Below, piece by piece: positions 2,651 to 63,880 of a stretch of DNA of 64,000 nucleotides. Within the stretch, counting starts at the first letter, position 1. Every line of letters begins with the position of its first letter. The DNA lies in NCBI GenBank assembly GCA_001786765.1, contig MFTH01000010.1, forward strand, positions 34,105 through 98,104, in the 5' to 3' direction. The position numbers and the translations under genes are program-made. Source of the stretch: Candidatus Nomurabacteria bacterium RIFCSPHIGHO2_01_FULL_37_25 (GTDB lineage: Bacteria > Patescibacteriota > Minisyncoccia > Phycocordibacterales > UBA9973). The notes beneath the pieces are model-generated. The model saw only the letters and a list, made by a program, of their open reading frames with translations. It was not told where the DNA came from and did not search any database.

Positions 2651-4126
2651 ATGAAAAATGCATATGACGTCGGAGAAATACTAAAATTGATGGGAAAAAT
2701 AAATAAGAAAGAAGAAGAACTTATAATAAAAGCTTATAGGTTTGCGCAGCGCGCGCATGAAGGTCAAAAAAGATTAAGCGGAGAACCTCATTTCACTCAC
2801 CCTTTTGAAACAGCCAAAACTTTAGCTTCACTGGGTATGGACGCGGAAACAATCTCGGCCGGATTAATGCATGATGTTCTGGAAGATACTAAGACAGGAG
2901 AAGAAGAAATGAGAAAAGAATTTGGAGAAAATATAGTTTTTCTAGTAAATGGCGTGACAAAACTTGGAACTTTGAAATATAGAGGACACGAAAGACATGT
3001 GGAAAGTTTGAGGAAATTCTTTGTGGCGATGGCAAATGATCTACGCACAGTTATCATAAAGTTTGCCGACAGACTGCATAATTTAAAAACTTTGGAATTT
3101 TTAAGAGAAGATAAAAGACGTAGGATTGCCATAGAATCAATCGAAGTGTATGCGCCACTGGCTAACCGTCTAGGTATGGGAAAATTTAAAGGCGAACTGG
3201 AAGACGCCGCTTTTCCGTTTGCTTTTCCAGAAGAATATAAACAAACCGAAGAAATAATAAAAGAAAAAAAAGATTTATATGAAAAAAACTTAGACGAAAT
3301 ACAGAAAAAGCTTCGAAAAGAATTGAATAAAAACAAAATCAAAGTGGTGGAAATAAATTATAGAATGAAACATAAGTACAGCTTATGGAAAAAACTCTTA
3401 AAGCGCGAAATGGATATAGAAAAAGTATATGACCTGATCGCTTTGCGGGTGGTAGTAGAAAGCATAGAAGAATGTTATAGAGTGTTAGGAATAATACATT
3501 CCCTTTGGAATCCATTACCCGGCAGGATAAAAGACTACATCGCGGTGCCAAAACACAATGGCTACCGCTCCATTCACACCACTATTTTCACCGGTTCGGG
3601 CGGAATCGCAGAAATTCAAATACGAACAAAAGAAATGCATGCCGAAGCGGCTTATGGTATCGCGGCTCATTTCGCCTACAAAGAACAAGGAAATAAAAAA
3701 GTGGAAAATGATAAATCAAAATTCAAATGGATAGAAGAATTAAAAAATTTGAATTACTCTCCGGATGAACCAAAAAAATTCATTGAGCATTTAAAGATGG
3801 ATTTTTTTAATGATCGCATTTTCGTTTTTACACCCAAGGGGGATGTAATAGATATGCCAGAGGATTCGTGTTCGCTTGATTTTGCTTATTTGATACATTC
3901 GGATATCGGAGAACATACCTTTGGCGCAAAAGTCAACGGCAAAATGGTTCAGCTTTTTACAAAATTAAAAAACGGAGACATTGTGGAAATAATAACTAAA
4001 AAAGATTCCAGACCGTCCAGAAAGTGGTTAGAATTCGTAAAAACTTCTGTCGCTAAAAAACATATAAGATCATATCTGGAAAAAAACACCTTACTTGCTA
4101 GGCTTAAATCTTTCGGTCGTTCTTAA
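2651..4126 (+). CDS. rel: Small bifunctional (p)ppGpp synthetase/hydrolase (RelA/SpoT homolog; HD + synthetase + TGS, no ACT domain)
   Basis: HD motif HDVLEDT, synthetase motifs (YRSIHTTI), TGS-like C-terminus. Confidence 0.88.
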   Translation: MKNAYDVGEILKLMGKINKKEEELIIKAYRFAQRAHEGQKRLSGEPHFTHPFETAKTLASLGMDAETISAGLMHDVLEDTKTGEEEMRKEFGENIVFLVNGVTKLGTLKYRGHERHVESLRKFFVAMANDLRTVIIKFADRLHNLKTLEFLREDKRRRIAIESIEVYAPLANRLGMGKFKGELEDAAFPFAFPEEYKQTEEIIKEKKDLYEKNLDEIQKKLRKELNKNKIKVVEINYRMKHKYSLWKKLLKREMDIEKVYDLIALRVVVESIEECYRVLGIIHSLWNPLPGRIKDYIAVPKHNGYRSIHTTIFTGSGGIAEIQIRTKEMHAEAAYGIAAHFAYKEQGNKKVENDKSKFKWIEELKNLNYSPDEPKKFIEHLKMDFFNDRIFVFTPKGDVIDMPEDSCSLDFAYLIHSDIGEHTFGAKVNGKMVQLFTKLKNGDIVEIITKKDSRPSRKWLEFVKTSVAKKHIRSYLEKNTLLARLKSFGRS

Positions 4127-5142
4127 ACGCTAAAATTAGAAATATTATATAAATCACTATCATCCCCGCCTGCCAATTGGCGGGCAGGTTTTTTAATTTC
4201 TTCTTTTGATCTATCATCGATCGGCGTATCTTCAATTTCTATATCAGATTTGTTTTTATTGATGTAGTTTTGAAGCATTTCCGCTTGCGCCGGCAAGATG
4301 TTTGATTTATTTTCACTGTTTGATTTATTTATCAAACTCAAAATAGTCCGCAGGTCTTCTATGGAAAAATAATCTATCTTGATTTGTCCGCCTAATTCTT
4401 TTCTGTCAATATGCACGCGGGTGCCTAATTTTTCTTGAAATTCTTCTTCGAGTTCAGTTATTTCTGGATCTGGCATAAACTCTTTCTTGCGTACTCGGTC
4501 ATAAGCTATTTTCCTTGCTAGTCTTTCCGCTTCACGCACGGTAATTTTTTTATATACAATTTCTTTAAATAATACTAACTGCTCTTCTCCATGATCGGCT
4601 AACATTAGTAATGGTCGTGTATGACCTTCGGTAATTTTACCTTCAGACAAACCGGCTATTATTTCTTCGGGTAAAGTTAAAATACGCAAAGAGTTAGACA
4701 CATATTCCCTACTCCTGCCCATTTTTTTTGCAATCTCATTATGAGTAAATTTAAATTCATTAGCTAATCGAAAAAAAGCGCGAGCGCGATCAACAGCATT
4801 CAAATCTTCACGTTGCAAGTTTTCAATAATGGCGAGTTCAAGCTTCATAATAGCAGTGTCCCCAGCTCGGATTATAACTGGCACTTGCGAGACTCCAGCC
4901 AAAATAGCCGCGCGCAATCTGCGTTCACCTGCTATGAGCTCATATTCAGTAACTAGTCCACCTCCATCTTTTTCCACTTCCATGCGAGAAACTGTCAACG
5001 GCTGGAGCACTCCGTATTGTTTTATGGAATCAGATAAATCTTGCAGACGCATTTCATCAAAATCCCGTCTTGGTTGATATGGGTTGGGTTTTATTTTATC
5101 GGTGTCAATCCAGAAAATTGAATTTGAATATAAATTAGACAT
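4123..5142 (-). CDS. parB: ParB/Spo0J-like partition protein
   Basis: ParB box LIAGERRLRAA, HTH region, C-terminal extension. Confidence 0.82.
   Translation of the reverse strand: MSNLYSNSIFWIDTDKIKPNPYQPRRDFDEMRLQDLSDSIKQYGVLQPLTVSRMEVEKDGGGLVTEYELIAGERRLRAAILAGVSQVPVIIRAGDTAIMKLELAIIENLQREDLNAVDRARAFFRLANEFKFTHNEIAKKMGRSREYVSNSLRILTLPEEIIAGLSEGKITEGHTRPLLMLADHGEEQLVLFKEIVYKKITVREAERLARKIAYDRVRKKEFMPDPEITELEEEFQEKLGTRVHIDRKELGGQIKIDYFSIEDLRTILSLINKSNSENKSNILPAQAEMLQNYINKNKSDIEIEDTPIDDRSKEEIKKPARQLAGGDDSDLYNISNFSV
4164..4194. terminator. GC hairpin (CCGCCTGCC..GGCGGGCAGG) plus T-run between convergent rel and parB
   Basis: Stem-loop followed by TTTTTT; bidirectional position. Confidence 0.6.
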
Positions 5143-6259: not shown

Positions 6260-6451
6260 TTCTGAATTTTAGTCGCCAAAGAAAAACTTGCCCGTCCGCC
6301 GAAGTTTTAACGAAGGCGGGAAATTGTCACTCGCCTCGCTAGCGCTATGGCGAAGCGGGTCGGTGCGGCTCCCCACCTGCGCCGAAATGCGTTCGGACTA
6401 ATTCAAGACTCTAAGTCGAAATTAATTATTAACTTTGCTATAATTAAACAT

Positions 6452-7051
6452 ATGAATCAAAAAGGATTTGTGAATATTGTTTTGATTGTGGTAATTGTAA
6501 CCGTTACCGCTATTGGTGGGTATTTTGCTTTTGTTAAAAAGTTGAGACCAATTGCTCAACAACCAACACAAACTCCTATTCAAACACCTACAGTATCTCC
6601 AACGTCTCCCCAGACCAAACCTGTCACTACCACAGTTCAAAATCCGGTAGTTAATAAATGGAAAACTTTCCAAAACAGCCGTTTTGCTTTTCAATTTGAA
6701 TATCCAACAGAATGGAGCGTGTTGGATAAGCTGGACGACCCATACGGTGTTAATTTTTGGTTGACGGAAAAGAATTCTGCTGCCGTAATCATGGATGTAG
6801 AAAGTGGGATAAATTTGTCGGTTATGGGGGTTTCTTATTGTGGCGCATACCCACAAGATAAAAGATGTGAATCTTTGAAAACTGAAAGCGATGGCTATGT
6901 AACCATTGACTGGAACGTAAGCGGAGGAGCCAACGCTATGTTTAGCTCGCAGAACGATACTTATGGGGTGAGTTTTACTTTGCATAAAATAAATTCTGAT
7001 ACAAAAGCTATTTTCAAAAAAGTTCTTTCGACTTTTAAATTCTTAAAATAA
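6452..7051 (+). CDS. Hypothetical secreted protein with prepilin-like N-terminus (QKGF...hydrophobic) and PT-rich linker
   Basis: MNQKGFVNIVLIVVIV... then QQPTQTPIQTPTVSPTSPQTKP linker; same architecture as the upstream gene; ORF-track start 6347 is probably too early. Confidence 0.5.
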   Translation: MNQKGFVNIVLIVVIVTVTAIGGYFAFVKKLRPIAQQPTQTPIQTPTVSPTSPQTKPVTTTVQNPVVNKWKTFQNSRFAFQFEYPTEWSVLDKLDDPYGVNFWLTEKNSAAVIMDVESGINLSVMGVSYCGAYPQDKRCESLKTESDGYVTIDWNVSGGANAMFSSQNDTYGVSFTLHKINSDTKAIFKKVLSTFKFLK

Positions 7052-7198
7052 TTTGCCGTCAAACCTGCCTGCCGGTAGGCAGGGAAAAACTTAAAATAAA
7101 GTAGCAAAAAAAAAACAGCAAATCCTGTAAAAAAGTTATCCCCACCAGTTGAATAATGATAAGTTGCATTATCTCGTATATGAGATATACTATTTGGT

Positions 7199-8716: not shown

Positions 8717-9645
8717 TGCACCTTTTGAAAAATAACTTTTTGCGGGGTTTCGAGCCGGGCGGGGCGAGAATTATAGTTATCTTGGGCCAAACTGCCACAG
8801 GGAAAAGTGACTTGGCGGTAAAAATTGCCAAAAAAATAGGCGGAGAAATAATTTCAGCTGATTCAAGACAAGTTTATAAAGGACTCGATATTGGCACTGG
8901 TAAAATTACAGAAAAAGAAATGCAGACCATACCGCATTATCTGCTGGATGTTGCAAATCCCAAAAAACAATTTACTGTAGCGCAATATAAAATCCTGGCA
9001 GATAAAAAGATAAAAGAAGTAATTGATAGAGATAAAATACCGATACTTTGCGGTGGTACAGGATTTTATATTGATGCGGTAACAAAAGGTATGATTTTTC
9101 CAAAAGTTCCACCAAATAAAAAATTAAGAAAAGACTTGGAACAAAAAACAGCTGAGACTCTTTTTAATATCCTGAAAAAATTAGATAAAGATAGGGCAAA
9201 AAGTATAGATTCTAAAAACAAAGTCCGGTTGATAAGAGCAATTGAGATAGCTAAAGCTTTAGGTGAAGTCCCTAAAATTACGGAGGCAACGCCTCCGTAT
9301 AAATTTATAAAAATAGGGTTAAAAGTTCCAGAGAAAACTCTAAAAAGAAAAATAAGAATCAGACTACGCAAGCGCATACGAAGTGGTATGGCGATAGAGC
9401 TTTACAATCTTCGTAAAGCTGGAGTGCCGTGGAAAAGATTCATTGAATTAGGTTTCGATCAAAAGTATATTGCATTATTTTTGCAAGGGAAAATATCTAA
9501 TAAAGAAATGCTAGAAAAACTTTTTAAAAGTAATTGGCAATACGCAAAACGCCAGATGACTTGGTTCAAACGCGACAAAGAAATTAAATGGTTCTCCCCT
9601 GTTTCTTACAAAAAAATAAAAATCTATATAGAAAATAAACTTTAA
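8716..9645 (+). CDS. miaA: tRNA dimethylallyltransferase
   Basis: P-loop GQTATGKS, ADSRQVYKGLDIGTGK, HYLLDV motifs. Confidence 0.9.
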   Translation: MHLLKNNFLRGFEPGGARIIVILGQTATGKSDLAVKIAKKIGGEIISADSRQVYKGLDIGTGKITEKEMQTIPHYLLDVANPKKQFTVAQYKILADKKIKEVIDRDKIPILCGGTGFYIDAVTKGMIFPKVPPNKKLRKDLEQKTAETLFNILKKLDKDRAKSIDSKNKVRLIRAIEIAKALGEVPKITEATPPYKFIKIGLKVPEKTLKRKIRIRLRKRIRSGMAIELYNLRKAGVPWKRFIELGFDQKYIALFLQGKISNKEMLEKLFKSNWQYAKRQMTWFKRDKEIKWFSPVSYKKIKIYIENKL

Positions 9646-19970: not shown

Positions 19971-20025
19971 TACTACGAAACATAAATTGAGATAACTTCT
20001 TAAGATTTCCGCATATGCAGAAATC

Positions 20026-20817
20026 TCACGAAACAATCACCGTAAACTCCCCTTTTTGTTTAACAGGGTTTTGAATTAAGTAATCTAAAATTTCTTTCGG
20101 CGTACCGGTTTTCAATTCTTCATAAATTTTTGTCAGTTCACGGGCGATACAGACTTTTTTATTGGGGCAAAATTTAGTGAGTGATTCTAAAGTTTTTAAA
20201 ATTCGATGTGGAGATTCGTAAAATACCATTGTTCTTTTTGATTCGGCAATTTCCTTAAATAAAGTTTCTCTGCCTTTTTTATGCGGTAAAAATCCTAAAA
20301 AAGTAAATTCGTGTGTCGGCAATCCAGAAGCAGAAAGCGCAGTGATAACAGCACTTGGTCCTGGTATAGGAATCACATCTACGACTATGTTAACATTCTC
20401 TGCGATAGCAGAGTTTGTTAAAAAGTTAAATTTTTCTCTAAACCCTTTAGAAGAAGGGTGAAGCGATTCAGCTTTGTTGAATTTAGCTTTTATCTCTGAG
20501 ACAAGCATAGCGCCAGGGTCTGATATCGTGGGAGTGCCAGCGTCAGAAACCAATGCCAAATTTTTCCCCCCTTCCAATAACTCAAAAATCTTTGCTAATT
20601 TACTGTTTTGTCTAGAGTTTTTCCCGGCAACATCGTCAGACGGATAGCTCATCGTTGGCGTATTAATATTGTATTTTTCTAAAATTTTTTTCGTCTGTCG
20701 CGTATCCTCACACAATATCAGATCAACACTTTTTAGTGTTTCAATCGCTCGGAGTGTGATATCCTGCAAATTCCCTATCGGCGTGGCAATAACATAAAAT
20801 TTAGACATTTTGATCAA
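20026..20817 (-). CDS. rsmI: 16S rRNA 2'-O-methyltransferase RsmI (tetrapyrrole-methylase family)
   Basis: YVIATPIGNLQDITLRAIETLKSVDLILCEDTR N-terminus. Confidence 0.85.
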   Translation of the reverse strand: MIKMSKFYVIATPIGNLQDITLRAIETLKSVDLILCEDTRQTKKILEKYNINTPTMSYPSDDVAGKNSRQNSKLAKIFELLEGGKNLALVSDAGTPTISDPGAMLVSEIKAKFNKAESLHPSSKGFREKFNFLTNSAIAENVNIVVDVIPIPGPSAVITALSASGLPTHEFTFLGFLPHKKGRETLFKEIAESKRTMVFYESPHRILKTLESLTKFCPNKKVCIARELTKIYEELKTGTPKEILDYLIQNPVKQKGEFTVIVS

Positions 20818-21379: not shown

Positions 21380-21871
21380 TTATCTCCTATATTTTCTAGC
21401 GCGCCATTTATCAGCGATTTTTACACGAGTAAGTGATCGCTCGAGTTCCGCTTCAAAATGTTCAAAATCTACATGTTCTTTATTCTGCATAGCCACCTTC
21501 ATCTCTTCTGCTCGAGTTTTTGCTTTTTCTATTTTCTCGTCTGAAATTTCAAATACATGTTCTGCAAAATCAGCCAAAATAGCCACTTCTGTCACATAAT
21601 CTAAACTTTTCCCCGACGCTTCTGGTCGGGGTTCCGACCCTTCTAGGCATCGGGATTTTATTTCCACAAAACCACCAGAAACTGCCATTGGTATATTCTC
21701 GCCTTTTGAGATTCCCACCACATCTCCCGAAGCAAGACCCACAATAAGAGGTATGTGCCCCGGCAAAACAGAGATTTCACCCTCCGTAGTGGGTATAACA
21801 ACTTCATCCACCATCTCTTCTAACACAAGACGTTCTGGGGTAACTATTTTTAATTTTAATTGTTTTGCCAT
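21380..21871 (-). CDS. atpC: ATP synthase F1 epsilon subunit (probable start MAKQLKLKIV; ORF track extends to 21949); carries a 17-aa in-frame insertion encoded by a GC-rich double hairpin
   Basis: Epsilon beta-sandwich and C-terminal helices; inserted SRCLEGSEPRPEASGKS segment encoded by 21611-21655. Confidence 0.85.
   Translation of the reverse strand: MAKQLKLKIVTPERLVLEEMVDEVVIPTTEGEISVLPGHIPLIVGLASGDVVGISKGENIPMAVSGGFVEIKSRCLEGSEPRPEASGKSLDYVTEVAILADFAEHVFEISDEKIEKAKTRAEEMKVAMQNKEHVDFEHFEAELERSLTRVKIADKWRARKYRR
21611..21655. repeat. GC-rich double-hairpin palindromic element (family P2), in-frame inside atpC
   Basis: CCCCGACgcttctgGTCGGGG plus a second CCGAC..TCGGG hairpin; ~60% GC in an AT-rich gene; copies at 47574-47618 and 36083-36122. 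Confidence 0.7.
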
Positions 21872-21997
21872 ATGTTTTTTGAAAATAAAATAGTTCTTTA
21901 GAAAAGCCTTGCGCAGGCTGTCGAGCCGAGCAGTTCGCTGGCGTAGCAACGCCAGATAGATTGCTTTTATAAAGAATCTATTTTATTTTCAAAGAAA

Positions 21998-34524: not shown

Positions 34525-35676
34525 TTATTTTTCGGCGCCACTAAACAAGCTAACATATTCATCATAAATATATGATTGACCATATTTCTTATCTTTATCT
34601 TTTGGAGTAAGAATCCCTATTTTTATAAATCTATCAATAACAGTCTGTGCTCCTGCGCGAGTAAACCCTGTCCATTTTTGAACGACAGTATTGTTTACGA
34701 TCGGTTGTCCGTAAAGTTTAGGTAAAACTTTAATGGCGCTTTCTGATGCTCGCTTACCCAATGTCTGTACTTTTCCCATATCCTGTTGGCGTAGCATGGT
34801 GATTTTGCCAACAATATCAATCGCCTCATTAGCAATCTCAATAACTCCATCAAGAAAAAAATCCACCCAATCAGACACAACCCCATGATGATAACCAAAA
34901 AGCTTCTCGTAATAGAGTTGCTGATGTTTCTTGAAGTAAGATGATAAGAAAAGTACCGGCTTCTCAAGAAATTTTTCTTTCCATAAATAGAAAGTGATGA
35001 GCATGCGACCCGTCCTGCCATTTCCATCAAGAAAAGGGTGGATTGTCTCAAATTGCGCGTGCAAAAGACCCGCCTTGATAACGGTCAAGGTCCCATCTTC
35101 ATCGTGCATATAATTCTCAAGATCGGTAAGCGCTTTATGCATCGCATCTACCGGAGGCGGTACAAATCGCGCGTTGTCGGGCCGAGTTCCTCCAATCCAG
35201 TTTTGAGTTTTACGAAACTCGCCAGGATCAGAAAAGTGAGTAGCTCTGGCTTTGTGCATCAATTTTTCGTGAAGTTCTCGGATGAACCGCAGAGTTAAGG
35301 GAAAGTCATCCGCCACTATGCGCTTCATTCCATAATTTAAAGCCTTAATGTAATGCAAAATATCATCAACATCTTCAGGAATGTTTGTATTGATTTTGAC
35401 TTCCGCCTCAATGGCATCAATCATCGTCGCCATAGTGCCCTCGATTTGGCTTGACGAGGCGGCGTCTTTGCGTAAGTACATAAGCAAGAAAAAATCAGCG
35501 TCAGGCAAAAGCTTGGTGATGCCATCTAATTTGCCAAGGAGCCGTGTTGCTTCGTTGTTTTTCTTAAGAATTTTTGAATCAAAATCAAAATTCTCTTTTG
35601 GCGGAAAAGGATTAGGAATAAAGGCTTTAAATCCTTCTTTTTGCTCTTTATTTATGCCAATTTGTATTGATTTCAT
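34525..35676 (-). CDS. Fic-family protein (AMPylator-type)
   Basis: HPFLDGNGRTGRMLITFYLW Fic motif, Fic_N region, C-terminal wHTH. Confidence 0.85.
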   Translation of the reverse strand: MKSIQIGINKEQKEGFKAFIPNPFPPKENFDFDSKILKKNNEATRLLGKLDGITKLLPDADFFLLMYLRKDAASSSQIEGTMATMIDAIEAEVKINTNIPEDVDDILHYIKALNYGMKRIVADDFPLTLRFIRELHEKLMHKARATHFSDPGEFRKTQNWIGGTRPDNARFVPPPVDAMHKALTDLENYMHDEDGTLTVIKAGLLHAQFETIHPFLDGNGRTGRMLITFYLWKEKFLEKPVLFLSSYFKKHQQLYYEKLFGYHHGVVSDWVDFFLDGVIEIANEAIDIVGKITMLRQQDMGKVQTLGKRASESAIKVLPKLYGQPIVNNTVVQKWTGFTRAGAQTVIDRFIKIGILTPKDKDKKYGQSYIYDEYVSLFSGAEK

Positions 35677-35712
35677 AAGGTTTGTTTCTATCTTTTTTAT
35701 AATGTATACAAC

Positions 35713-35860
35713 TTTGAATTACGAAACTCGTCGAAGGCATGTCTTTTTTAGGGGGTTTCGAGGCTGTCGAGCCGAGAACTTCAGGATTTTTTAAGCTTAA
35801 AAAAATCCGTACCCTAGAAAAAGACATGCCTAGAAAGAGTTTTGTAATTCATGATATACA
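35713..35860. mobile_element. MITE-like element copy 1 (~148 bp, 17-bp TIRs TTTGAATTACGAAACT / AGTTT[TC]GTAATTC[AA])
   Basis: TIRs flank a core with GGCTGTCGAGCCGAG and the perfect palindrome GGATTTTTTAAGCTTAAAAAAATCC. Confidence 0.75.
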
Positions 35861-35979
35861 AAGTATAGCAGTTTGTATCTTTTTGGTCAAGAGATGTATA
35901 CAAACCTACGATTCCCCACTAAACGCCTTATTCATCGTGAATTACCTCATTTTTCACTCGTTCCCTCTGAAGTTTCGAT

Positions 35980-36054
35980 TGGTGAGCGTGGATGGAATCG
36001 GACCATCGGCCTCTGTCTTATCAGGACAGCGTTCTACCACTGAACTACACGCTC
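35980..36054 (-). tRNA. tRNA-Ile(GAT) with atypical T-loop (TCCGATT), CCA encoded
   Basis: Reverse complement GAGCGTGTAGTTCAGTGGTAGAACGCTGTCCTGATAAGACAGAGGCCGATGGTCCGATTCCATCCACGCTCACCA; canonical cloverleaf but C at the usually invariant U55. Confidence 0.65.
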
Positions 36055-36082
36055 ATACTTAAATTTTAAAATGACACTGAAA

Positions 36083-36122
36083 GCCGACGATTCTGTCGGC
36101 TCCCCGACCAAATGCGTCGGGG
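36083..36122. repeat. Intergenic copy of the GC-rich double-hairpin element (family P2)
   Basis: GCCGACgattctGTCGGC and CCCCGACcaaatgcGTCGGGG. Confidence 0.65.
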
Positions 36123-36147
36123 CTACACGCTCAAAACTTGTGAATTA

Positions 36148-36300
36148 CGAAACTCGTCGAAGGCATGTCTTTTTTAGGGGGTTTCGAGGCTGTCGAGCCG
36201 AGAACTTCAGGATTTTTCAACCTGCCTGCCGGCAGGCAGGGCTTCGAAAAATCCGTATCCTAGAAAAAGACATGCCTAGAAAGAGTTTCGTAATTCAAAG
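36148..36300. mobile_element. MITE-like element copy 2 with nested CCTGCCTGCCGGCAGGCAGGG palindrome replacing the central AAGCTT hairpin
   Basis: Same TIRs and core as copy 1; 36221-36241 carries the P1 palindrome. Confidence 0.75.
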
Positions 36301-36335
36301 TCAAAACATAAACAAATATAACATAAACAAAACAA

Positions 36336-36365
36336 AAAACCACCCAAGGTGGTTTTTTGTTTAAT
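36336..36365. terminator. Bidirectional rho-independent terminator (AACCACCCAAGGTGGTT flanked by A and T runs)
   Basis: Perfect hairpin with poly-T on both strands, downstream of the RRM gene. Confidence 0.7.
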
Positions 36366-37461: not shown

Positions 37462-37535
37462 GACTCAATAAATTTCTGAATTACTTTGAATTATATCACA
37501 CCCATCTATAAGGGATACTAAAAGATAAAGTGGAT
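37462..37535. promoter_or_regulatory. Repeated promoter/5'UTR cassette, copy A (GACTCAATAAATTTCTGAATTACTTTGAATTATA..CACAC..ATAAGGGATACTAAAAGATAAAGTG)
   Basis: ~75-bp near-identical copy at 38860-38934, partial copy at 38090-38127; contains TTGAAT..TATAAG promoter-like hexamers. Confidence 0.5.
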
Positions 37536-37829: not shown

Positions 37830-38207
37830 ACTCCTGAATCATACTAAACACTATTTTTTATGCAAACTATGGATTACTCTTCCTTCTTCTCTACTTGATG
37901 ACTTAGAAAAGGAATAACGTGCATCTTGAGACGCACGTCATTAAAAACTACCACCGTAGAGTCCTGAAAAAGAATATTACGGCGAGATAAAAAACGACAC
38001 TAAAAACCACAATACCTAGAATTTCCATCACAAAAAACCCCTTTCTTCTGGATGTACTGTGTTGTTTTTTTGTTACATCCGCCGGTTAATATATCACAAA
38101 GATACTAAAAGATAAAGTGGATTACTCAATGTCTTTCGTAATATGCTCGATATTTTATACTCCGCTAAGCCATATCTTATTTTGATTTTTTGTAAATCTG
38201 ATCATGA

Positions 38208-38859: not shown

Positions 38860-38934
38860 GACTCAATAAATTTCTGAATTACTTTGAATTATACCACACA
38901 CATCCATAAGGGATACTAAAAGATAAAGTGTATT
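38860..38934. promoter_or_regulatory. Repeated promoter/5'UTR cassette, copy B
   Basis: See 37462-37535. Confidence 0.5.
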
Positions 38935-46504: not shown

Positions 46505-46536
46505 GTAGACTCTGTATATGATAAAATTACTCATCT

Positions 46537-46570
46537 GTCTAAGATTTCCGCATATGCGGAAATCTTAGAC
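46537..46570. repeat. 34-bp perfect palindrome GTCTAAGATTTCCGCATATGCGGAAATCTTAGAC (family P3) between convergent genes
   Basis: Perfect dyad; related copies at 20003-20026 and 52081-52106 with half-site 51429-51447. Confidence 0.8.
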
Positions 46571-51319: not shown

Positions 51320-51459
51320 AATATTTATATCCTAACATATTAGAAGCGAAATGCAATTTTTTTTCAATTTTCTATAAGTTTATGATTGCCAGAAAGTAAA
51401 CGTCTTCTTATTTTTTCCCAACTTTTACGCATATGCTAGAATCTTATGAAAAAGATAAA

Positions 51460-52080
51460 TTAAAATAAATGAAAATTTTTCTTTAACTTTTCTTCTCTTA
51501 AGAAGTTTTCTACAGTCAAAACCTCCACATATTTCCCCACTCCAAAGAAATCAGCAATAAAGATTATTTCGTCTTCACAAGGATAAGGATAAATCCAAGC
51601 GGATTTTTGAAATTGGAAAAAATTTAATTCTTTCAAATGATACCGTAATGCTTCTCTACCTTTTGTAAATCTCATCGGAATATCAAACATAACTAATCTC
51701 CATTTGCTATCCCATCTTTTTGGCTTGTTAATCTTCATCAGCTCAATATCGAAAGCTCTGAGTCTCGTATTTCCTTTTTTAGTAATTTTTACTATAGTTT
51801 TTCCGTTCTTGTCAGCGACATATTCTATGAGTTTTTGACGTCTAATATTATCAATAGCGCTTTGTATTTGTTTTTTAGAATACTTTTTAGATCCTTCAAA
51901 CATCTTAAAACATTGCACTGCATTACCCATAACTCCTGCGCCCAACACCAGCATAGGCATTAAAGATACAGCCAACACACAAAGAGCAACTGTGGAAATT
52001 TTTGCTTCAGTTGTATCAGACTCTAAAAAATCTTTTAATCTCTTTGAATACCCTGCTTTATTATTTTTTCCCATATACAT
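51460..52080 (-). CDS. PaaX-family-like regulator (N-terminal TM segment, wHTH, PaaX_C-like W..W.L..FDIP...LR..L...F.....S.W..P) bracketed by inverted half-palindromes
   Basis: RWDSKWRLVMFDIPMRFTKGREALRYHLKELNFFQFQKSAWIYP matches the PaaX C-terminal pattern; IRs at 51429-51447 and 52081-52099. Confidence 0.45.
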   Translation of the reverse strand: MYMGKNNKAGYSKRLKDFLESDTTEAKISTVALCVLAVSLMPMLVLGAGVMGNAVQCFKMFEGSKKYSKKQIQSAIDNIRRQKLIEYVADKNGKTIVKITKKGNTRLRAFDIELMKINKPKRWDSKWRLVMFDIPMRFTKGREALRYHLKELNFFQFQKSAWIYPYPCEDEIIFIADFFGVGKYVEVLTVENFLREEKLKKNFHLF

Positions 52081-52107
52081 AAGATTCTAGCATATGCGGA
52101 AATCTTA

Positions 52108-52264: not shown

Positions 52265-54043
52265 ATGTGTGATATTATAAATAACATAAATTATATGAAC
52301 GAAAATAATAAACTGCAAAATTTAAGACATACTTTAGCCCACTTACTCGCCGCATCTATAAGGGCAATTTATAAAGATTCTCAAAATGCCATTGGTCCGG
52401 CCATAGACGATGGCTTTTATCAGGATTTTGAGTTGGTTGAACCAATTTCCGAAAATGATTTACCAAAAATAGAGAAAAAAATGCGAGAGCTTTTGAAAAA
52501 GTGGAACGCTTTTGAAAAACGAGAAGTAACCCCGCAAGAAGCAAAAAAAGAGTTTGCTTGGAATAAATACAAAGTTGAATTAATTGAAGAATTTGCAAAA
52601 GACGGGAAAAATCTGACTTTCTACACTTGTGGTGATTTTATAGATTTGTGCAAAGGAGGACATTTAGAAAATCCTAGTAAAGAACTTCCGTTTGACGCTT
52701 TCAAACTAGACCGTGTGGCCGGAGCTTACTGGCGTGGAGATGAAAAGAATAAAATGCTTACGCGTATTTATGGTTTAGCCTTTGAAACCAAAGAAGAATT
52801 AGACGCATACATAATGCAAAGAATAGAAGCAGAGAAAAGAGACCACAGAGAGTTGGGCAAAAAATTAGAATTATTCACTTTTGATGAAGAGGTCGGGAAG
52901 GGTCTGCCTATTTGGTTGCCAAAGGGAAATATAATTAAAGAAGAATTAGAAAATTGGGCAAAAGAGACAGAAAAAAAATGGAATTACCAAAGAGTCACGA
53001 CCCCAATAATCACAAAAGAAAATTTGTTTTACACCTCTGGGCATTTGCCTTTATACAAAGAAAGCATGTATGCGCCTATATCTATCGAAGAAGAAAATTA
53101 CTATATAAAACCGATGAATTGTCCTTTTCATCATAAAGTATTTTCTGCCCTTCCCAGAAGTTATAAAGATTTGCCTCTTCGTCTGGCAGAATACGGATGG
53201 TGTCATAGATATGAAGATTCTGGAAGTCTTTTTGGGCTGATGAGAGTGCGTGGAATGCAAATGAATGATGCTCACATATATACAACACAAGAGCAAGCGA
53301 TAAATGAATTTGTGGATGTAATAAGATTGCACGAATATTATTACAAAGTGCTTGATATAGATAAATATGAGATGGAATTGGCTTTGCGAGATCCAAAAAA
53401 AATAGATAAATATCATGGCGAAGAAAAAGATTGGAAAATGGCAGAAGAAATGACAATAAAAGCTATGGAACTCTCAGGAGTGCCGTTTAAGATAGTCCAT
53501 GAAGGAGCCGCCTTTTACGGACCAAAAATGGATTTCCAAATATATTCTTCTATCGGCAGATCTTTCACTGCTTCAACAAATCAATTAGATTTATACATGG
53601 GTAAAAGATTCAAGTTAGAATATACAGACAAAGATGGGTCTAGAAAAACACCATTTATAATACACCGAGCTCCGCTTGGAACCCACGAAAGATTTATTGG
53701 ATTTTTAATAGAACACTTTGGCGGCGCCTTCCCTCTTTGGCTTTCGCCTGTACAGGTCAAGGTCATACCCGTGCGGGAAAATCATAATGAATACGCGAGA
53801 AAAATTTTTGAATCATTAAGAGAAAATAATATCCGCGTAGAACTTGACGAAGGAGACCAAAACCTAGGCACGAAAGTTCGTGACGCTAAAAATAACAAGC
53901 TACCCTACTGGATAGTCGTCGGTGATAAAGAAATTGAAGCGAATAAAATAACTTTAGAATCACGCGATTCCGGTCAGCTTGGGCAAATGAGTCGCGAAGA
54001 ACTCATAAAAAAACTTTTGGAAGAAATAAAGAATAAAAAATAA
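52265..54043 (+). CDS. thrS: Threonyl-tRNA synthetase lacking the N-terminal TGS domain
   Basis: Editing/SAD HxxxH (HTLAHLL), class II motifs, anticodon-binding domain. Confidence 0.9.
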   Translation: MCDIINNINYMNENNKLQNLRHTLAHLLAASIRAIYKDSQNAIGPAIDDGFYQDFELVEPISENDLPKIEKKMRELLKKWNAFEKREVTPQEAKKEFAWNKYKVELIEEFAKDGKNLTFYTCGDFIDLCKGGHLENPSKELPFDAFKLDRVAGAYWRGDEKNKMLTRIYGLAFETKEELDAYIMQRIEAEKRDHRELGKKLELFTFDEEVGKGLPIWLPKGNIIKEELENWAKETEKKWNYQRVTTPIITKENLFYTSGHLPLYKESMYAPISIEEENYYIKPMNCPFHHKVFSALPRSYKDLPLRLAEYGWCHRYEDSGSLFGLMRVRGMQMNDAHIYTTQEQAINEFVDVIRLHEYYYKVLDIDKYEMELALRDPKKIDKYHGEEKDWKMAEEMTIKAMELSGVPFKIVHEGAAFYGPKMDFQIYSSIGRSFTASTNQLDLYMGKRFKLEYTDKDGSRKTPFIIHRAPLGTHERFIGFLIEHFGGAFPLWLSPVQVKVIPVRENHNEYARKIFESLRENNIRVELDEGDQNLGTKVRDAKNNKLPYWIVVGDKEIEANKITLESRDSGQLGQMSREELIKKLLEEIKNKK

Positions 54044-54047
54044 CCTA

Positions 54048-54190
54048 GTTTGAATTACGAAACTCTTACTTGGCATATCTTTTTCTAGGGTACAGATTTT
54101 TTGAAGCTTAAAAAATCTTGAAGTTTGCTCGCCGTCGCTCGCAAAACCCCCTAAAAAAGACATGCCTGCGACAAGTTTCGTAATTCAAAG
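54048..54190. mobile_element. MITE-like element copy 3 (opposite orientation, ~85% identity to copy 1), followed by a degenerate partial copy at ~54205-54275
   Basis: Same 17-bp TIRs TTTGAATTACGAAACT...AGTTTCGTAATTCAAAG and AAGCTT-centred internal hairpin. Confidence 0.75.
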
Positions 54191-54337
54191 TTAATTAGTA
54201 TAAATTCCAAAAAAACTCGTCGCAGGTGTAGTTTTTGGTAGACATTGCGCAGGCTGACGAGCCGAGCATAGCAAATTTTCAGCAGAAAATTATGCGTGTC
54301 TAACAAAAATTATACCGAGAAAGAGTTTTTTTGGAAT

Positions 54338-55249
54338 TTACAAACTTAAAGCCATTTTTGATTTCCAAAAAAAGAAAGCAATTATGAACATTGTCATAAG
54401 CGGAGATAAATATTCTGGAATATGAAAATCAAAACTATGCAATATCATAATAATACCTAGCACCAATATAGAATACATCGCGCCATTTTTTAAATAAACA
54501 TATTTTTTAATTCGTTCTATATTGCTGATGGTGACCTGTCGCACCAATAACGCGCCAAAACCATTTCCAATTAAAATCAAAGGCACAGAGAGAGTAAAAG
54601 CAAAAGCGCCGAGCACTCCGTCAATAGAAAAAGTGGTATCAATTATTTCTAAAAAGAAAAGTTTGCTCAAATCCGAATGCGCGCTACCAAGCAATTTCCT
54701 TTCCTGTTCTTCGGCATTTTGTTTGAAACCATGAGTAATAAAAAATAAACTTGAGCCGACGACAGCTCCAAAGCCCATTATGTTACTCTCTTTGAGCGCA
54801 AACCAAGAAATAATTGCAAGTAAAACAGAAACTACAGCATAAAACCAAACTCCTTTTGACATGAAAAATTTCTCTGTCCTCGGTAAACCAAGCTTTTTAT
54901 CTTCTAGAAACAGCCAATGTAAAAATAAAAACAAAAGAAAAACTCCGCCAGCGACGAGCAAAATTGGCGCGGATTTTTCTATGGATTCCAGAACCACAGG
55001 GTCAGAAGACCAAGCCGCTGAAAAAATCTGCATTGGGCTAAGACTTGTGTTAAAAGCCCAAATTATAGCAAAAGGTAAAAGCCCACGAACTAAAAATACC
55101 GCAATAAACATTCCCCAAGTTAGAAACCACCTCCGAGCGCGAGAGCCCATGGTGGAGAGCACCTCGGCATTTATAATAGCATTATCCACAGACGAAACTG
55201 CTTCAAAAAGCGAGAGACCAATGATAGTAATAAGGGCGGAAAATAGCAT
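54338..55249 (-). CDS. TerC/DUF475-family integral membrane protein
   Basis: SVDNAIINA motif, ~8 TM helices. Confidence 0.65.
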   Translation of the reverse strand: MLFSALITIIGLSLFEAVSSVDNAIINAEVLSTMGSRARRWFLTWGMFIAVFLVRGLLPFAIIWAFNTSLSPMQIFSAAWSSDPVVLESIEKSAPILLVAGGVFLLFLFLHWLFLEDKKLGLPRTEKFFMSKGVWFYAVVSVLLAIISWFALKESNIMGFGAVVGSSLFFITHGFKQNAEEQERKLLGSAHSDLSKLFFLEIIDTTFSIDGVLGAFAFTLSVPLILIGNGFGALLVRQVTISNIERIKKYVYLKNGAMYSILVLGIIMILHSFDFHIPEYLSPLMTMFIIAFFFWKSKMALSL

Positions 55250-55709: not shown

Positions 55710-55747
55710 ACTTGTATATTATAACAACAAATAAGCGGCAAAAATAC

Positions 55748-55952
55748 TTGACTTTTTCATTTTATTGTGCTATACTATAAGGGTAATAAGGTCTTTGAAA
55801 ATATAATATGTTTCGAGTTATTCTTGAGTGGTTCGCCCATCAAGTAGCTAAAGAAATTTAGCTCTTTGCTCGGCGAACGACTCGAAAAATAAATCCATTC
55901 CGACGAAAGTCGGAATACAACATGCGTCTATGAGGCGCAAAGGGAGAAGGAA
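55748..55952 (+). promoter_or_regulatory. Promoter (TTGACT-17-TATACT) plus ~170-nt structured leader, copy 1
   Basis: Near-identical promoter and colinear leader at 57351-57556, with compensatory stem changes. Confidence 0.65.
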
Positions 55953-57298: not shown

Positions 57299-57350
57299 AT
57301 TTTAATATTATAAAATAAGGATAAAATAGCTTTTTTGTCAAGATTAAACC

Positions 57351-57556
57351 TTGACTTTTTCATTTTATTGTGCTATACTATAAAGGTAATCAGGTCTTTG
57401 AAAATATAATATGTTCTGAGTCATTCTTGAGCAGTTTGCCTATCAAGTAGCTAAAGAGATTTGGCTCTTTGCTTGGCAAACGAGCTCAAGGAATGGAAAC
57501 TTCTCTGGTGAAAGCCAGAGTACAAATGCGTCATCTTGACGCGAAAGGAGTCCACA
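57351..57556 (+). promoter_or_regulatory. Promoter (TTGACT-17-TATACT) plus ~170-nt structured leader, copy 2
   Basis: See copy 1; the ORF-track ORF 57469-57702 lies inside the leader and is probably not coding. Confidence 0.65.
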
Positions 57557-59118: not shown

Positions 59119-59511
59119 CTAGAAAGGAGTGGTTGGAAAAGTGATAGTTTGAGGATTTGTATCAATTCCAAAAGTGTTTGTTAGAATCTTTACGAGTCCC
59201 CATACGGTAACAATAACAGCCAAGCCAATTATGCCAAATATTATTCTGTCTCGTCCTTTCTTTTTTGCTTCTGCATCATCTCCAATAACATAAGAAATTA
59301 CTCCCCATACAAAGTAAATGACCCCTAAGATAATTATAATAGGAACAATTTGAGTAAAAAGTTGAGCTATCTTACATAAGATAGCTTCAATTGTGCCTGT
59401 ACCCACACTAGCACAATTAGTAGAAGTACCCCCCGTCGTCACCTGCGCCAATGCCATAACAGGCGCTAGACCTAAAACAAAACCCGACAAAACAATTAAT
59501 TTCTTTTTCAT
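59119..59511 (-). CDS. TrbC/VirB2-like pilin-family protein (paralog 2, with signal peptide)
   Basis: Signal peptide, then IIILGVIYFVWGVISYVIGDDAEAKKKGRDRIIFGIIGLAVIVTVWGLV core. Confidence 0.55.
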   Translation of the reverse strand: MKKKLIVLSGFVLGLAPVMALAQVTTGGTSTNCASVGTGTIEAILCKIAQLFTQIVPIIIILGVIYFVWGVISYVIGDDAEAKKKGRDRIIFGIIGLAVIVTVWGLVKILTNTFGIDTNPQTITFPTTPF

Positions 59512-59622
59512 CCCGTTTAGAAATTATGATATCCGTACATTACCTTTAGGTATATAAAGAAACACAATTCTTACTTTTATAATTTCTCCCGTTTTCTAAA
59601 TTTCTAACGGGATTCAAAACGA
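59512..59622 (-). promoter_or_regulatory. 5' leader inverted repeat (CCCGTTAGAAATT...AATTTCTAAACGGG-ATG) of pilin paralog 2
   Basis: 13/14-bp arms enclosing ~80 nt; 3' arm abuts the ATG. Confidence 0.45.
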
Positions 59623-59726
59623 CTTTGATAATAATTAATAATACTTAATAAAGAACTACCATGCTATTGTACCACAAACAGTATCAAAAAAGAAAGCAAG
59701 CCCCGTCTGAATAAAGACGCTGAAAG

Positions 59727-60302
59727 TTATGGGGGTGGTGTCTTAACTTGTGGAATAAAACTAGTGTTAATCCCAAAGGTAGTACCTAGTATTTCAACCA
59801 ACCCCCAAACGGAAACCATCACCGTCAAAGCAATCAACCCCCAAAGCATAAATTGCTTGCCTTTTTGCTTTTTCGCCTCTTCGTCGCTTTTGATAACATA
59901 CTGCACCACACCCCAGACAAACATCACCATCGCTAAAGCGAAAATAAGAGGAATGATAGCGTTGTTAATAATGGTGGTGATATAACACACAAGGTCTTGA
60001 AATCTCGGATAGGGACCAAGAGTTTGGCAAGTGTCTATGGGCTCAAAGACGGGCCCAGTTGCATTTGTAAGCCCGAAAGTTTCAGCAATAATGCTTACAA
60101 GTCCCCATACAGACACAATAACAGTCAAGCCAATGATGCCATATATTATTCTATCTCTCCCTTTCTTTTTTGCTTCATCACCGCCCCCTATAACATACTG
60201 CACCACGCCCCAGACAAAATAGACCACTCCTAAAGCAACCAAAACAGGAATGATTGAACTAAGAATATTATACGCCTCAAATATTAAATCCTCTATGGTC
60301 AT
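59727..60302 (-). CDS. Tandem-duplicated TrbC/VirB2-like pilin-family protein (two complete core modules in one ORF)
   Basis: Two copies of ...LGVVYFVWGVVQYVIGGGDEAKKKGRDRIIYGIIGLTVIVSVWGLV... / ...LAMVMFVWGVVQYVIKSDEEAKKQKGKQFMLWGLIALTVMVSVWGLV... Confidence 0.55.
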   Translation of the reverse strand: MTIEDLIFEAYNILSSIIPVLVALGVVYFVWGVVQYVIGGGDEAKKKGRDRIIYGIIGLTVIVSVWGLVSIIAETFGLTNATGPVFEPIDTCQTLGPYPRFQDLVCYITTIINNAIIPLIFALAMVMFVWGVVQYVIKSDEEAKKQKGKQFMLWGLIALTVMVSVWGLVEILGTTFGINTSFIPQVKTPPP

Positions 60303-63212: not shown

Positions 63213-63880
63213 TCAAAGAGACACTTTGACATAATACAGTGAATGAGTAATAGAGATTATAAAAAATTTAATATTGGATCAATAGCTCACATTTACAACA
63301 GAGGAAATAACAAGGAAAAAATATTTTTTGATGATCAAGATTACAGAGCTTTTCTTTTTAGACTTGCTTTAGTTTTAGGATTTGACCAAAAAGAATTACA
63401 AAACGAAAACTTGTTAAGTATGCCTTATTCCAGAATACGAATTGAATTTAAAGGAAAAAATAAATTCAAAATACATGCTTTTTGTCTTATGCCAAATCAT
63501 TTTCATTTATTAATTGAGCAAGTTGGAGATACCTCAATTTCAAAATTAATTTCAAAAGTCTGTTCAAGTTATTCTAAATATATAAATAAAAAATATAAAC
63601 GTGTTGGACATACTTTTCAAGATTGTTTTAAAGCTGTAATTATTGAGAATAATCCTCAACTAATGTGGGTTTCGTCTTATATCCACATGAATGCAGTAAA
63701 AGATGGTTTGGTAAAACACCCTTCTGAATATTTATGGAGTAGTTACAACGATTACACTTCCCTCAGAAATTTACCGTTAGTTACAAAAGAATTATTAATA
63801 GAAACTTTTGGCGATGAGAAAAATTTTATAGAACAAACATTGAATTTTAGTGTCAAAGTGTCTCTTTGACACCCTTACCT
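63213..63880 (+). mobile_element. IS200/IS605-type element carrying a RAYT-like Y1 transposase, flanked by complementary hairpins
   Basis: Left hairpin TGTCAAAGagacacTTTGACA (63215-63235); right GTGTCAAAGtgtctcTTTGACAC (63855-63877), the reverse complement of the left. Confidence 0.7.
63243..63869 (+). CDS. tnpA: IS200-like / REP-associated tyrosine transposase (HuH Y1)
   Basis: HuH motif LMPNHFHLL, catalytic Tyr region (WSSYNDY), ~200-aa RAYT-length form. Confidence 0.78.
   Translation: MSNRDYKKFNIGSIAHIYNRGNNKEKIFFDDQDYRAFLFRLALVLGFDQKELQNENLLSMPYSRIRIEFKGKNKFKIHAFCLMPNHFHLLIEQVGDTSISKLISKVCSSYSKYINKKYKRVGHTFQDCFKAVIIENNPQLMWVSSYIHMNAVKDGLVKHPSEYLWSSYNDYTSLRNLPLVTKELLIETFGDEKNFIEQTLNFSVKVSL

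Follow-up and report, generated by a model that had tools for sequence, protein, structure and literature searches.

Hairpin-forming miniature transposable elements with a conserved folded core around a tRNA-Ile gene of Candidatus Nomurabacteria

We analysed 64,000 nucleotides of the genome of Candidatus Nomurabacteria bacterium RIFCSPHIGHO2_01_FULL_37_25 (assembly GCA_001786765.1, contig MFTH01000010.1, positions 34,105 to 98,104), referred to below as the window, in which a tRNA-Ile(GAT) gene lies between two copies of a short hairpin-forming element. The original prediction, made from the letters of the window, had described these copies as miniature inverted-repeat transposable elements (MITEs) that bracket the tRNA and a GC-rich double hairpin in an arrangement that could mobilise or duplicate a tRNA or that marks a recombination hotspot. 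Both copies exist, in the same orientation and at the corrected coordinates given in Table 1; ARAGORN and Rfam agree on the minus-strand tRNA gene between them, and the double hairpin was located there as well. Copy 1 lies on the side of a Fic gene, and copy 2 occupies the space between the tRNA gene and the terminator (36330-36362) of a gene coding for an RRM protein. The housekeeping proteins of the window are 60-90% identical to those of Candidatus Nomurabacteria or Paceibacterota metagenome-assembled genomes (MAGs). Close relatives of copy 1, aligned on its 137-bp body, are called the c1 family here.

Table 1. Elements and neighbouring features in the window. TSD, target site duplication.
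Feature	Position	Strand	Remarks
MITE copy 1	35712..35854	+	143 bp: CTT triplet, 137-bp body, TGA triplet
TSD of copy 1, TATACAA	35705-35711 (left), 35855-35861 (right)		7 bp, pattern common to the family
MITE copy 2	36138..36300	+	163 bp: TTG triplet, body 36141-36297, AAG triplet
TSD of copy 2, TCAAAAC	36131-36137 and 36301-36307		7 bp
Nested palindrome CCTGCCTGCCGGCAGGCAGG	36221..36240	.	exact 20-nt insertion relative to the family consensus, apical loop of copy 2
MITE copy 3	54048..54190	-	inverted relative to copies 1 and 2; 85-87% identical to copy 1 (85% across 142 nt)
Element e4	54201..54340	+	architecture and inner arm (AAACTCGTCGCAGG / GAGAAAGAGTTT) common with c1; other termini; type-2 core; nhmmer E 1.5e-20
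Element e5	21878..21993	+	type-3 core, unrelated arms TTTGAAAATAAAATAG; fills the atpD-atpC spacer
tRNA-Ile(GAT)	35980..36054	-	ARAGORN; Rfam tRNA 71.9 bits
Two GC-rich hairpins	36083..36122	-	between copy 2 and tRNA-Ile; terminator-like on the minus strand
Promoter-like TTGACC-17-TATACT	35862..35890	-	reads towards copy 1 and the Fic gene; consensus match only
Fic gene	34525-35676		start codon 35 nt downstream of copy 1

The body of copy 1, TGAATTACGAAACT...AGTTTTGTAATTCA (TGAATT...AATTCA), spans 35715-35851. Copy 2 starts 426 bp further on and matches copy 1 with 98% identity across 83 nt and 93% across 57 nt. The arms of both copies are self-complementary over 34-38 nt (85-89% complementary); the inverted ends had been recognised correctly, although the 17 bp assigned to them was too short, the arms being 34 nt or longer. 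Open reading frames (ORFs) in the copies are only spurious read-throughs of the hairpin, and elements of 143-163 bp have no coding capacity. The palindrome that had been noticed inside copy 2 is the exact insertion CCTGCCTGCCGGCAGGCAGG, which sits without duplication in the AAGCTT apical loop of an internal hairpin (hairpin B, described below). A 26-nt arm probe has three matches in the 64 kb against none expected, and the search for further copies yielded a third one, which is situated directly 3' of the stop codon of a thrS-like ORF (52265-54043). The flanking repeat of this copy has decayed (TAACCTA / TTAATTA), and the copy is older than copies 1 and 2.

The exact terminal inverted repeat (TIR) pattern has no match in species-representative genomes or in viral contigs. 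Scanning metagenome contigs with the arm pattern gave 33 loci, which BLAST and comparison of their flanks resolved into 26 distinct insertion contexts; identity to copy 1 is 95-99% for most copies and 81-92% for older ones. When the family is aligned, the body is followed at each end by three extra nucleotides and then by a 7-bp direct repeat. This repeat is exact at all seven positions and at the fixed offset in at least 10 of the 19 aligned copies, where about 0.002 would be expected by chance, and is shifted by one base in several further copies. Examples are TATTATA, TCTTTAA, ATAAAAA, TTCCATA, TTGGTAA, TAAGTAA, TTTTACA, ATATTTT and, for copy 1, TATACAA, which contains the ATACAA repeat that had been suspected at this copy.

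Sites without the element, which the original prediction had suggested looking for in relatives, were found for two copies in the loci that we fetched, which carry L numbers. Locus L038 reads ATAAAAA-TCG-body-AAG-ATAAAAA, whereas L056 has a single ATAAAAA and lacks the entire insert, terminal triplets included; likewise, the copy in L055 is matched in L056 by a single TTGATAT. The terminal triplets are therefore inserted DNA, and the 7-mers are true TSDs. The c1 element moves, duplicating 7 bp of AT-rich intergenic target, and its family has recently been amplified in several co-occurring Nomurabacteria-like genomes. Small size, lack of coding capacity, inverted ends, TSDs of fixed length, dispersed copies and empty sites identify c1 as a MITE, as had been proposed, and the TIR-bounded unit is not unique to this locus. 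The unit, a long imperfect hairpin in which inverted arms of about 35 nt surround a three-way-junction core, encodes no protein and is best explained as a non-autonomous DNA transposon of 143 bp.

This core is shared more widely than the family. A 24-nt core is common to copy 1 and the elements e4 and e5, the arms of which are different or only partly similar, and a search of the window with an nhmmer profile gives these five elements and no others (copies 1-3, e4 and e5). Beyond the window, a 20-nt degenerate core pattern occurs at no fewer than 116 genome loci; among the matches listed, 26 are chance matches in GC-rich genomes and about 90 lie in AT-rich MAGs of Patescibacteria (Paceibacteria/Nomurabacteria-type). 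Viral contigs gave either no match to the core patterns or GC-rich chance matches. Orthologous housekeeping proteins from the superfamily loci are 45-94% identical, which places the spread of the superfamily roughly at the level of a class or order. The label 'Saccharibacteria' attached to some of these loci is doubtful, since their housekeeping proteins share 74-84% identity with the proteins from Nomurabacteria loci.

Within the superfamily the core is near-constant inside a few types, and the outer arms of 15-30 nt vary by element and are 94% Watson-Crick paired. Orthologous sites in related species that lack the element also lack the arms; two such empty sites of superfamily elements correspond to positions at about 18.2 and 26.7 kb of the window. 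Arms match nearby sequence at 3 loci, against 5.4 expected. Since the arms are missing from empty sites and are not copies of nearby DNA, they travel with the element. The same two observations rule out that the elements insert into hairpins already present or that the arms arise as inverted duplicates of the flank, both of which we had considered.

Certain operon spacers have been occupied repeatedly. The atpD-atpC spacer carries an element in four species: a type-3 element in the window and in L176 (about 6310-6460), a c1-like element in L031 (3907-4062) and a type-2 element in opposite orientation in L064 (about 6470-6590). Downstream of rpsT, three species have a type-1 element in the spacer, and a fourth species has one of type 3. 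Beside the c1-like copy in the L031 spacer stands AAAATTAAAATAG, an apparent remnant arm of an older element. Another fragment, TTTTTGCGGGGTTTCGAGCCGGGCGGGGCGAGAA (inner arm plus a variant of hairpin A), was seen at 8737-8770 of the window, where it forms approximately codons 8-18 of a miaA-like ORF starting at 8717; the 5' end of the gene seems to have incorporated this remnant.

The conserved three-way-junction core is built from hairpin A (GGCU-GNCG-AGCC, bordered by G/A residues) and the variable hairpin B. Copy 1 folds with -64.6 kcal/mol on the core strand (z -9.6) and with -55.7 on the other strand. For 43 type-2 and type-4 cores, 92.6% of cells are paired, compared with 75.6% in shuffles and 35-50% for slid partners, and the covariation score is 0.447 against 0.149, a value that none of 500 shuffles reached. 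Compensatory changes occur at 8 of the 10 pairs of hairpin B, and the outer part of hairpin A switches between C-G and A-U and between G-C and U-A. Conservation tracks base pairing and not codons. Type-1 elements, copies 1 and 3 included, give the same pairing picture; in copy 3 and L052 the sequence of hairpin A is altered and the hairpin is kept.

Mismatches are distributed unevenly between the strands. On the core strand the arms contain 39 G·T and 14 A·C mismatches (p = 0.0008), and hairpin B contains 16 G·U and a single A·C (p = 0.0003). Covarying stems together with G·U pairs tolerated on one strand only suggest that it is the folding of that strand, as RNA or as single-stranded DNA (ssDNA), that appears to be under selection. 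The fold could serve mobilisation, or it could have a function for the host, for instance as a hairpin that stabilises transcripts or directs their processing.

Two known RNA structures were compared with the core and rejected. The hammerhead ribozyme is a three-way junction with an invariant CUGANGA ... GAAA core. In the CUGNCGA of hairpin A, the position of the would-be invariant A6 is occupied by A, U or G, and no hammerhead model matched. Reading the core as a kink-turn was rejected by inspection and by Rfam. Searches of Rfam 15 found only the tRNA above gathering score, and E-value searches with five elements gave only weak, generic matches to plant miRNA hairpins.

Taken together, these results make it probable that c1 is a MITE mobilised in trans, that two copies of it inserted independently next to a resident tRNA gene, and that it belongs to a superfamily in which the folding of one strand is selected. 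Several observations weigh against this account. The superfamily has variable arms around a conserved core, the reverse of a textbook MITE and hard to fit with sequence-specific recognition of TIRs, and TSDs are found in only 3 of 63 old superfamily members (0.46 expected). Orientation relative to flanking ORFs is not fixed, with 29, 17, 13 and 12 cases in the four classes (29 vs 17, p = 0.10). The 1.15 Mb of fetched DNA contains no autonomous element and no long-range TIR pair with these ends, and no protein recurs beside the elements, clustering of the neighbouring ORFs having returned only housekeeping genes. A further difficulty lies in the ends themselves, where the outermost three nucleotides of the arms are dimorphic: the terminal triplets of the c1 family are TCG..AAG in 9 copies, CTT..CGA in 8, CTT..AAG in 4 and TCG..CGA in none (Fisher p = 0.005). 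The pattern gives the impression that the 137-bp body can be inverted against an invariant AAG|TCG hexamer junction, an outcome that simple cut-and-paste would not predict. The triplet isomer correlates neither with internal single-nucleotide polymorphisms nor with the orientation of flanking genes.

The apparent selection on folding also allows for elements that are chiefly host-retained functional structured RNAs, either small RNA genes or hairpin modules of mRNAs, for which mobility is secondary or ancient; the copies flanking the tRNA would then act as terminators, insulators or processing sites. Such a role agrees with the covariation and G·U bias of the core, with conserved unpaired residues around hairpin A, with arms that are still 94% paired although the TSDs of old copies have decayed, and with the occupation of the same spacers (downstream of rpsT, atpD-atpC) in several species. 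We nevertheless consider it rather unlikely as the chief explanation. The variable orientation to genes, which extends even to the atp spacer, argues against a simple cis-acting RNA role; elements are present in one genome and absent from a close relative; c1 has undergone a recent burst of copies, 95-99% identical and with TSDs; and no Rfam family matches.

A more speculative reading, which we put forward only tentatively, sees the elements as a Patescibacteria-specific mobile structured nucleic acid. The core would be functional as a protein-binding or catalytic RNA or as a one-strand recombination site like attC, the arms would need only to pair, the flipping body would reflect an unconventional insertion chemistry, and the copies flanking the tRNA would represent one recently amplified lineage.

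Returning to the c1 element as a MITE, its mobilisation would depend in trans on a transposase encoded elsewhere. The fixed 7-bp TSD and the TG...CA ends of the body point to a DDE-type enzyme making staggered cuts 7 bp apart. The cognate transposase that the original prediction had suggested looking for was not found in the fetched loci, and with neither an autonomous element nor a recurrent protein, the transposase and its class are unproven. Genes near some copies, namely an IS481-like rve transposase in L031, a serine recombinase in L054 and a TraD-like gene in L062, are unrelated to the element ends; the rve transposase has ends of its own that do not resemble those of the element.

The window itself encodes a transposase at 63243-63869, an IS200-like Y1_Tnp protein (Pfam E 1.4e-13) of the type of the REP-associated tyrosine transposases (RAYTs; REP, repetitive extragenic palindromic). 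The elements could be related to REPINs, doublets of REP sequences, and be moved as ssDNA by this enzyme. They are long hairpins whose arms are recognisable by structure and not by sequence, folding of one strand with tolerance for G·T would suit an ssDNA intermediate, and small GC-rich palindromes do insert into their hairpin loops. Transposition by IS200/IS605/RAYT enzymes makes no TSD, whereas the c1 family has TSDs of 7 bp backed by empty sites; no fixed tetranucleotide adjoins the insertions; and no REP sequences or matching hairpins are obvious around the Y1_Tnp gene. This origin is therefore very unlikely, and the earlier remark that the IS200-like gene at 63.2 kb has different hairpin ends agrees with our finding that it is not the obvious partner of the MITE. 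The gene could be linked to the small GC-rich palindromes described below.

Selection of structure on one strand with G·U pairs, along with short TSDs, is also what a retroelement resembling short interspersed elements (SINEs) could leave, if a plus-strand RNA hairpin were inserted by target-primed reverse transcription. We regard this as highly improbable: the TSD is fixed at 7 bp, the ends are precise on both sides with no 3' tail, and no reverse transcriptase was seen near the copies, where the neighbouring proteins were clustered and mostly unannotated. To our knowledge there is no bacterial precedent for a SINE-like retroelement.

The history of the tRNA-Ile locus was reconstructed by comparison with L137 (Candidatus Nomurabacteria RIFCSPHIGHO2_02_40_30). 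There, prfA is followed by the RRM gene, a terminator and, after 25 nt, tRNA-Ile(GAT), and a response-regulator gene comes 40 nt further on, with no element, no GC-rich hairpins and no Fic gene; the RRM protein is about 95% identical to that of the window (by reading), and the DNA 86% across 433 nt. This arrangement indicates that the tRNA-Ile gene is resident and that elements, hairpins and Fic block are additions to its surroundings. The MITE-tRNA-MITE structure is the same in every contig that codes for an identical RRM or Fic protein, and no empty allele was found among these contigs. The TSDs of copies 1 and 2 differ, as do the sequences that flank the pair on the outside (TATACAA vs TCAAAAC), which shows two separate insertion events; both copies inserted separately beside a pre-existing tRNA-Ile gene. 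Copy 2 entered between the terminator of the RRM gene and the tRNA, the 20-bp GC-rich palindrome joined its apical loop later, and copy 1 entered between the promoter-like site and the start codon of the Fic gene. Given that upstream promoter-like site, copy 1 probably lies in the Fic 5' untranslated region (UTR).

The proposal that the pair could mobilise or duplicate a tRNA amounts to a composite transposon, in which the same-orientation copies bound a larger segment with tRNA-Ile as past or potential cargo. Apart from the bracketing itself, it could draw on c1 copies close to other tRNA genes: in L050 a copy lies 38 nt from tRNA-Asp, in L056 the distance to tRNA-Phe is 21 nt, and in L030 a copy sits within a tRNA cluster. 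By a rough estimate, such closeness is about as frequent as expected from the share of tRNA flanks in the small intergenic space. The two copies have separate TSDs and unlike outer flanks, the MITE-tRNA-MITE unit is confined to contigs of one locus, and in L137 the tRNA adjoins the RRM gene with no element at all, so that we give the composite transposon very little credence. Origin of both copies by local tandem duplication or as chance hairpins, suggested by their shared orientation and spacing of 426 bp, can be dismissed given the single inter-copy sequence, the 26 unrelated contexts elsewhere and the distinct TSDs.

For the suggested recombination hotspot there are two weak signs, both of which may be assembly artefacts. 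In one metagenome contig, L046, the sequence to the left of one MITE copy is linked to the sequence to the right of a different copy (compare L030 and L059), and at least 10 groundwater metagenome contigs of the same strain (among L014-L029) end inside copy 1 or 2, which is what a repeat would be expected to cause. The Fic block has the look of an acquired island; the 822-aa neighbour of the Fic gene is also missing from the L137 tRNA locus. After copy 1, a second case of a c1 sequence upstream of such a gene was noticed in L045, where a solo left end of the MITE of about 50 nt (3762-3810) lies directly upstream of a Fic-family ORF (3904-4797).

The GC-rich palindrome nested in copy 2 belongs to a small repeat of its own. 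As a 20-bp sequence, CCTGCCTGCCGGYAGGCAGG, it occurs three times in the window (2384-2403, 7064-7083 and 36221-36240) against none expected, once in frame inside a zinc-ribbon ORF (..CPICKTDLPAGRQGDMSERRGRFG..), once in an intergenic position and once in the MITE. A similar 20-bp palindrome is present at L108:4578. The AAGCTT apical loop of hairpin B holds nested inserts repeatedly, at 36221-36240 of the window, L031:3950-3985, L096, L129, L032/L062 and L055:1797-1943. Most of these inserts are GC-rich palindromes, such as CCCCGCCATGGCGGGG in L031; a hairpin of 105 nt is found in L032/L062 and an insert of 10 nt in L055. The apical loop looks like a hot spot for tiny insertions that target loops.

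Hairpin pairs rich in GC, made up of CCCCGAC..GTCGGGG and a second stem, recur at 36083-36122, 21611-21655 and L043:2996-3075. Two of the pairs lie no more than a few tens of nucleotides from a MITE copy, and the pair in L043 looks like bidirectional terminators. Other repeats were noticed in the window. The operator-like palindrome AAGATTTCCGCATATGCGGAAATCTT occurs four times (19982-20026, 46521-46565, 51413-51469 and 52061-52105); two of the copies flank a 206-aa ORF (51460-52080), whose homologues in L039 and L047 adjoin a different palindrome. Two 74-nt direct repeats, 95% identical (37462-37535 and 38860-38933), with a 27-nt partial copy at 38101-38127, stand upstream of three small minus-strand ORFs and may be shared promoter or leader sequences. 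Further direct repeats at 55747-55880 / 57350-57483 (134 nt, 90%) and at 59168-60265 (93-193 nt, 61-74%) look like paralogous gene segments.

Full-text literature searches returned no published description of MITEs, or of elements of this kind, in genomes of the Candidate Phyla Radiation (CPR) or Patescibacteria. We regard c1 as a new MITE family whose conserved structured core is unusual, and the superfamily of hairpin elements around it is apparently undescribed. The tRNA locus itself is ordinary, a resident gene that gathered two insertions, and the core of the superfamily is the more notable result, as its covariation and one-strand G·U bias make it a candidate for a new structured RNA or for a recombination site read by structure. 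CPR genomes are tiny and tightly packed, and expression is likely to be influenced by an element that fills whole operon spacers and 5' UTRs. The copies also break, and possibly mis-join, metagenome assemblies, which matters in practice for how reliable CPR genome bins are.

Among known systems, c1 would by analogy behave like the ERIC or Correia-type MITEs, which form hairpins, are intergenic and co-transcribed and encode no transposase. Enterobacterial repetitive intergenic consensus (ERIC) sequences, also called intergenic repeat units (IRUs), are imperfect palindromes of about 127 bp in enterobacteria and vibrios that are reported to target TA. The elements described here share with them a non-coding intergenic hairpin, often within operons and in either orientation, a MITE-like character with no known transposase, sequence conserved between species, and extra segments inserted at internal sites. 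They differ in the 7-bp TSD, in the three-way-junction core that is conserved while the arms vary, and in their host, Patescibacteria, and no Rfam match points to sequence similarity with ERIC. Correia elements, or Neisseria miniature insertion sequences (NEMIS), are MITEs of about 100-160 bp with conserved 26-bp TIRs that duplicate TA, are co-transcribed and form long RNA hairpins. They resemble c1 in size range, inverted ends, long hairpins and many near-identical copies beside genes; they have no conserved internal junction and no variability of the arms, and duplicate TA instead of 7 bp.

The remaining likenesses are more partial. REPINs are hairpin doublets and recall our elements in their one-strand folding and in the Y1 transposase gene of the window; they have a conserved REP head and no TSD, in contrast to the 7-bp TSDs here. 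Small palindromes found both in intergenic DNA and in frame inside an ORF, as at 2384-2403, bring to mind the Rickettsia palindromic elements, although the palindrome in the window is much shorter (20 bp), GC-rich and from another clade. With integron attC sites the elements would share recognition that rests on a folded single strand, with the structure conserved and the stem sequence largely free. The ends of attC sites are conserved and their centre variable, and they form cassette arrays beside an integrase, with no TSD; nothing of this kind was seen here, and the elements of Patescibacteria combine a constant core and variable arms with, in the c1 family, TSDs of 7 bp.

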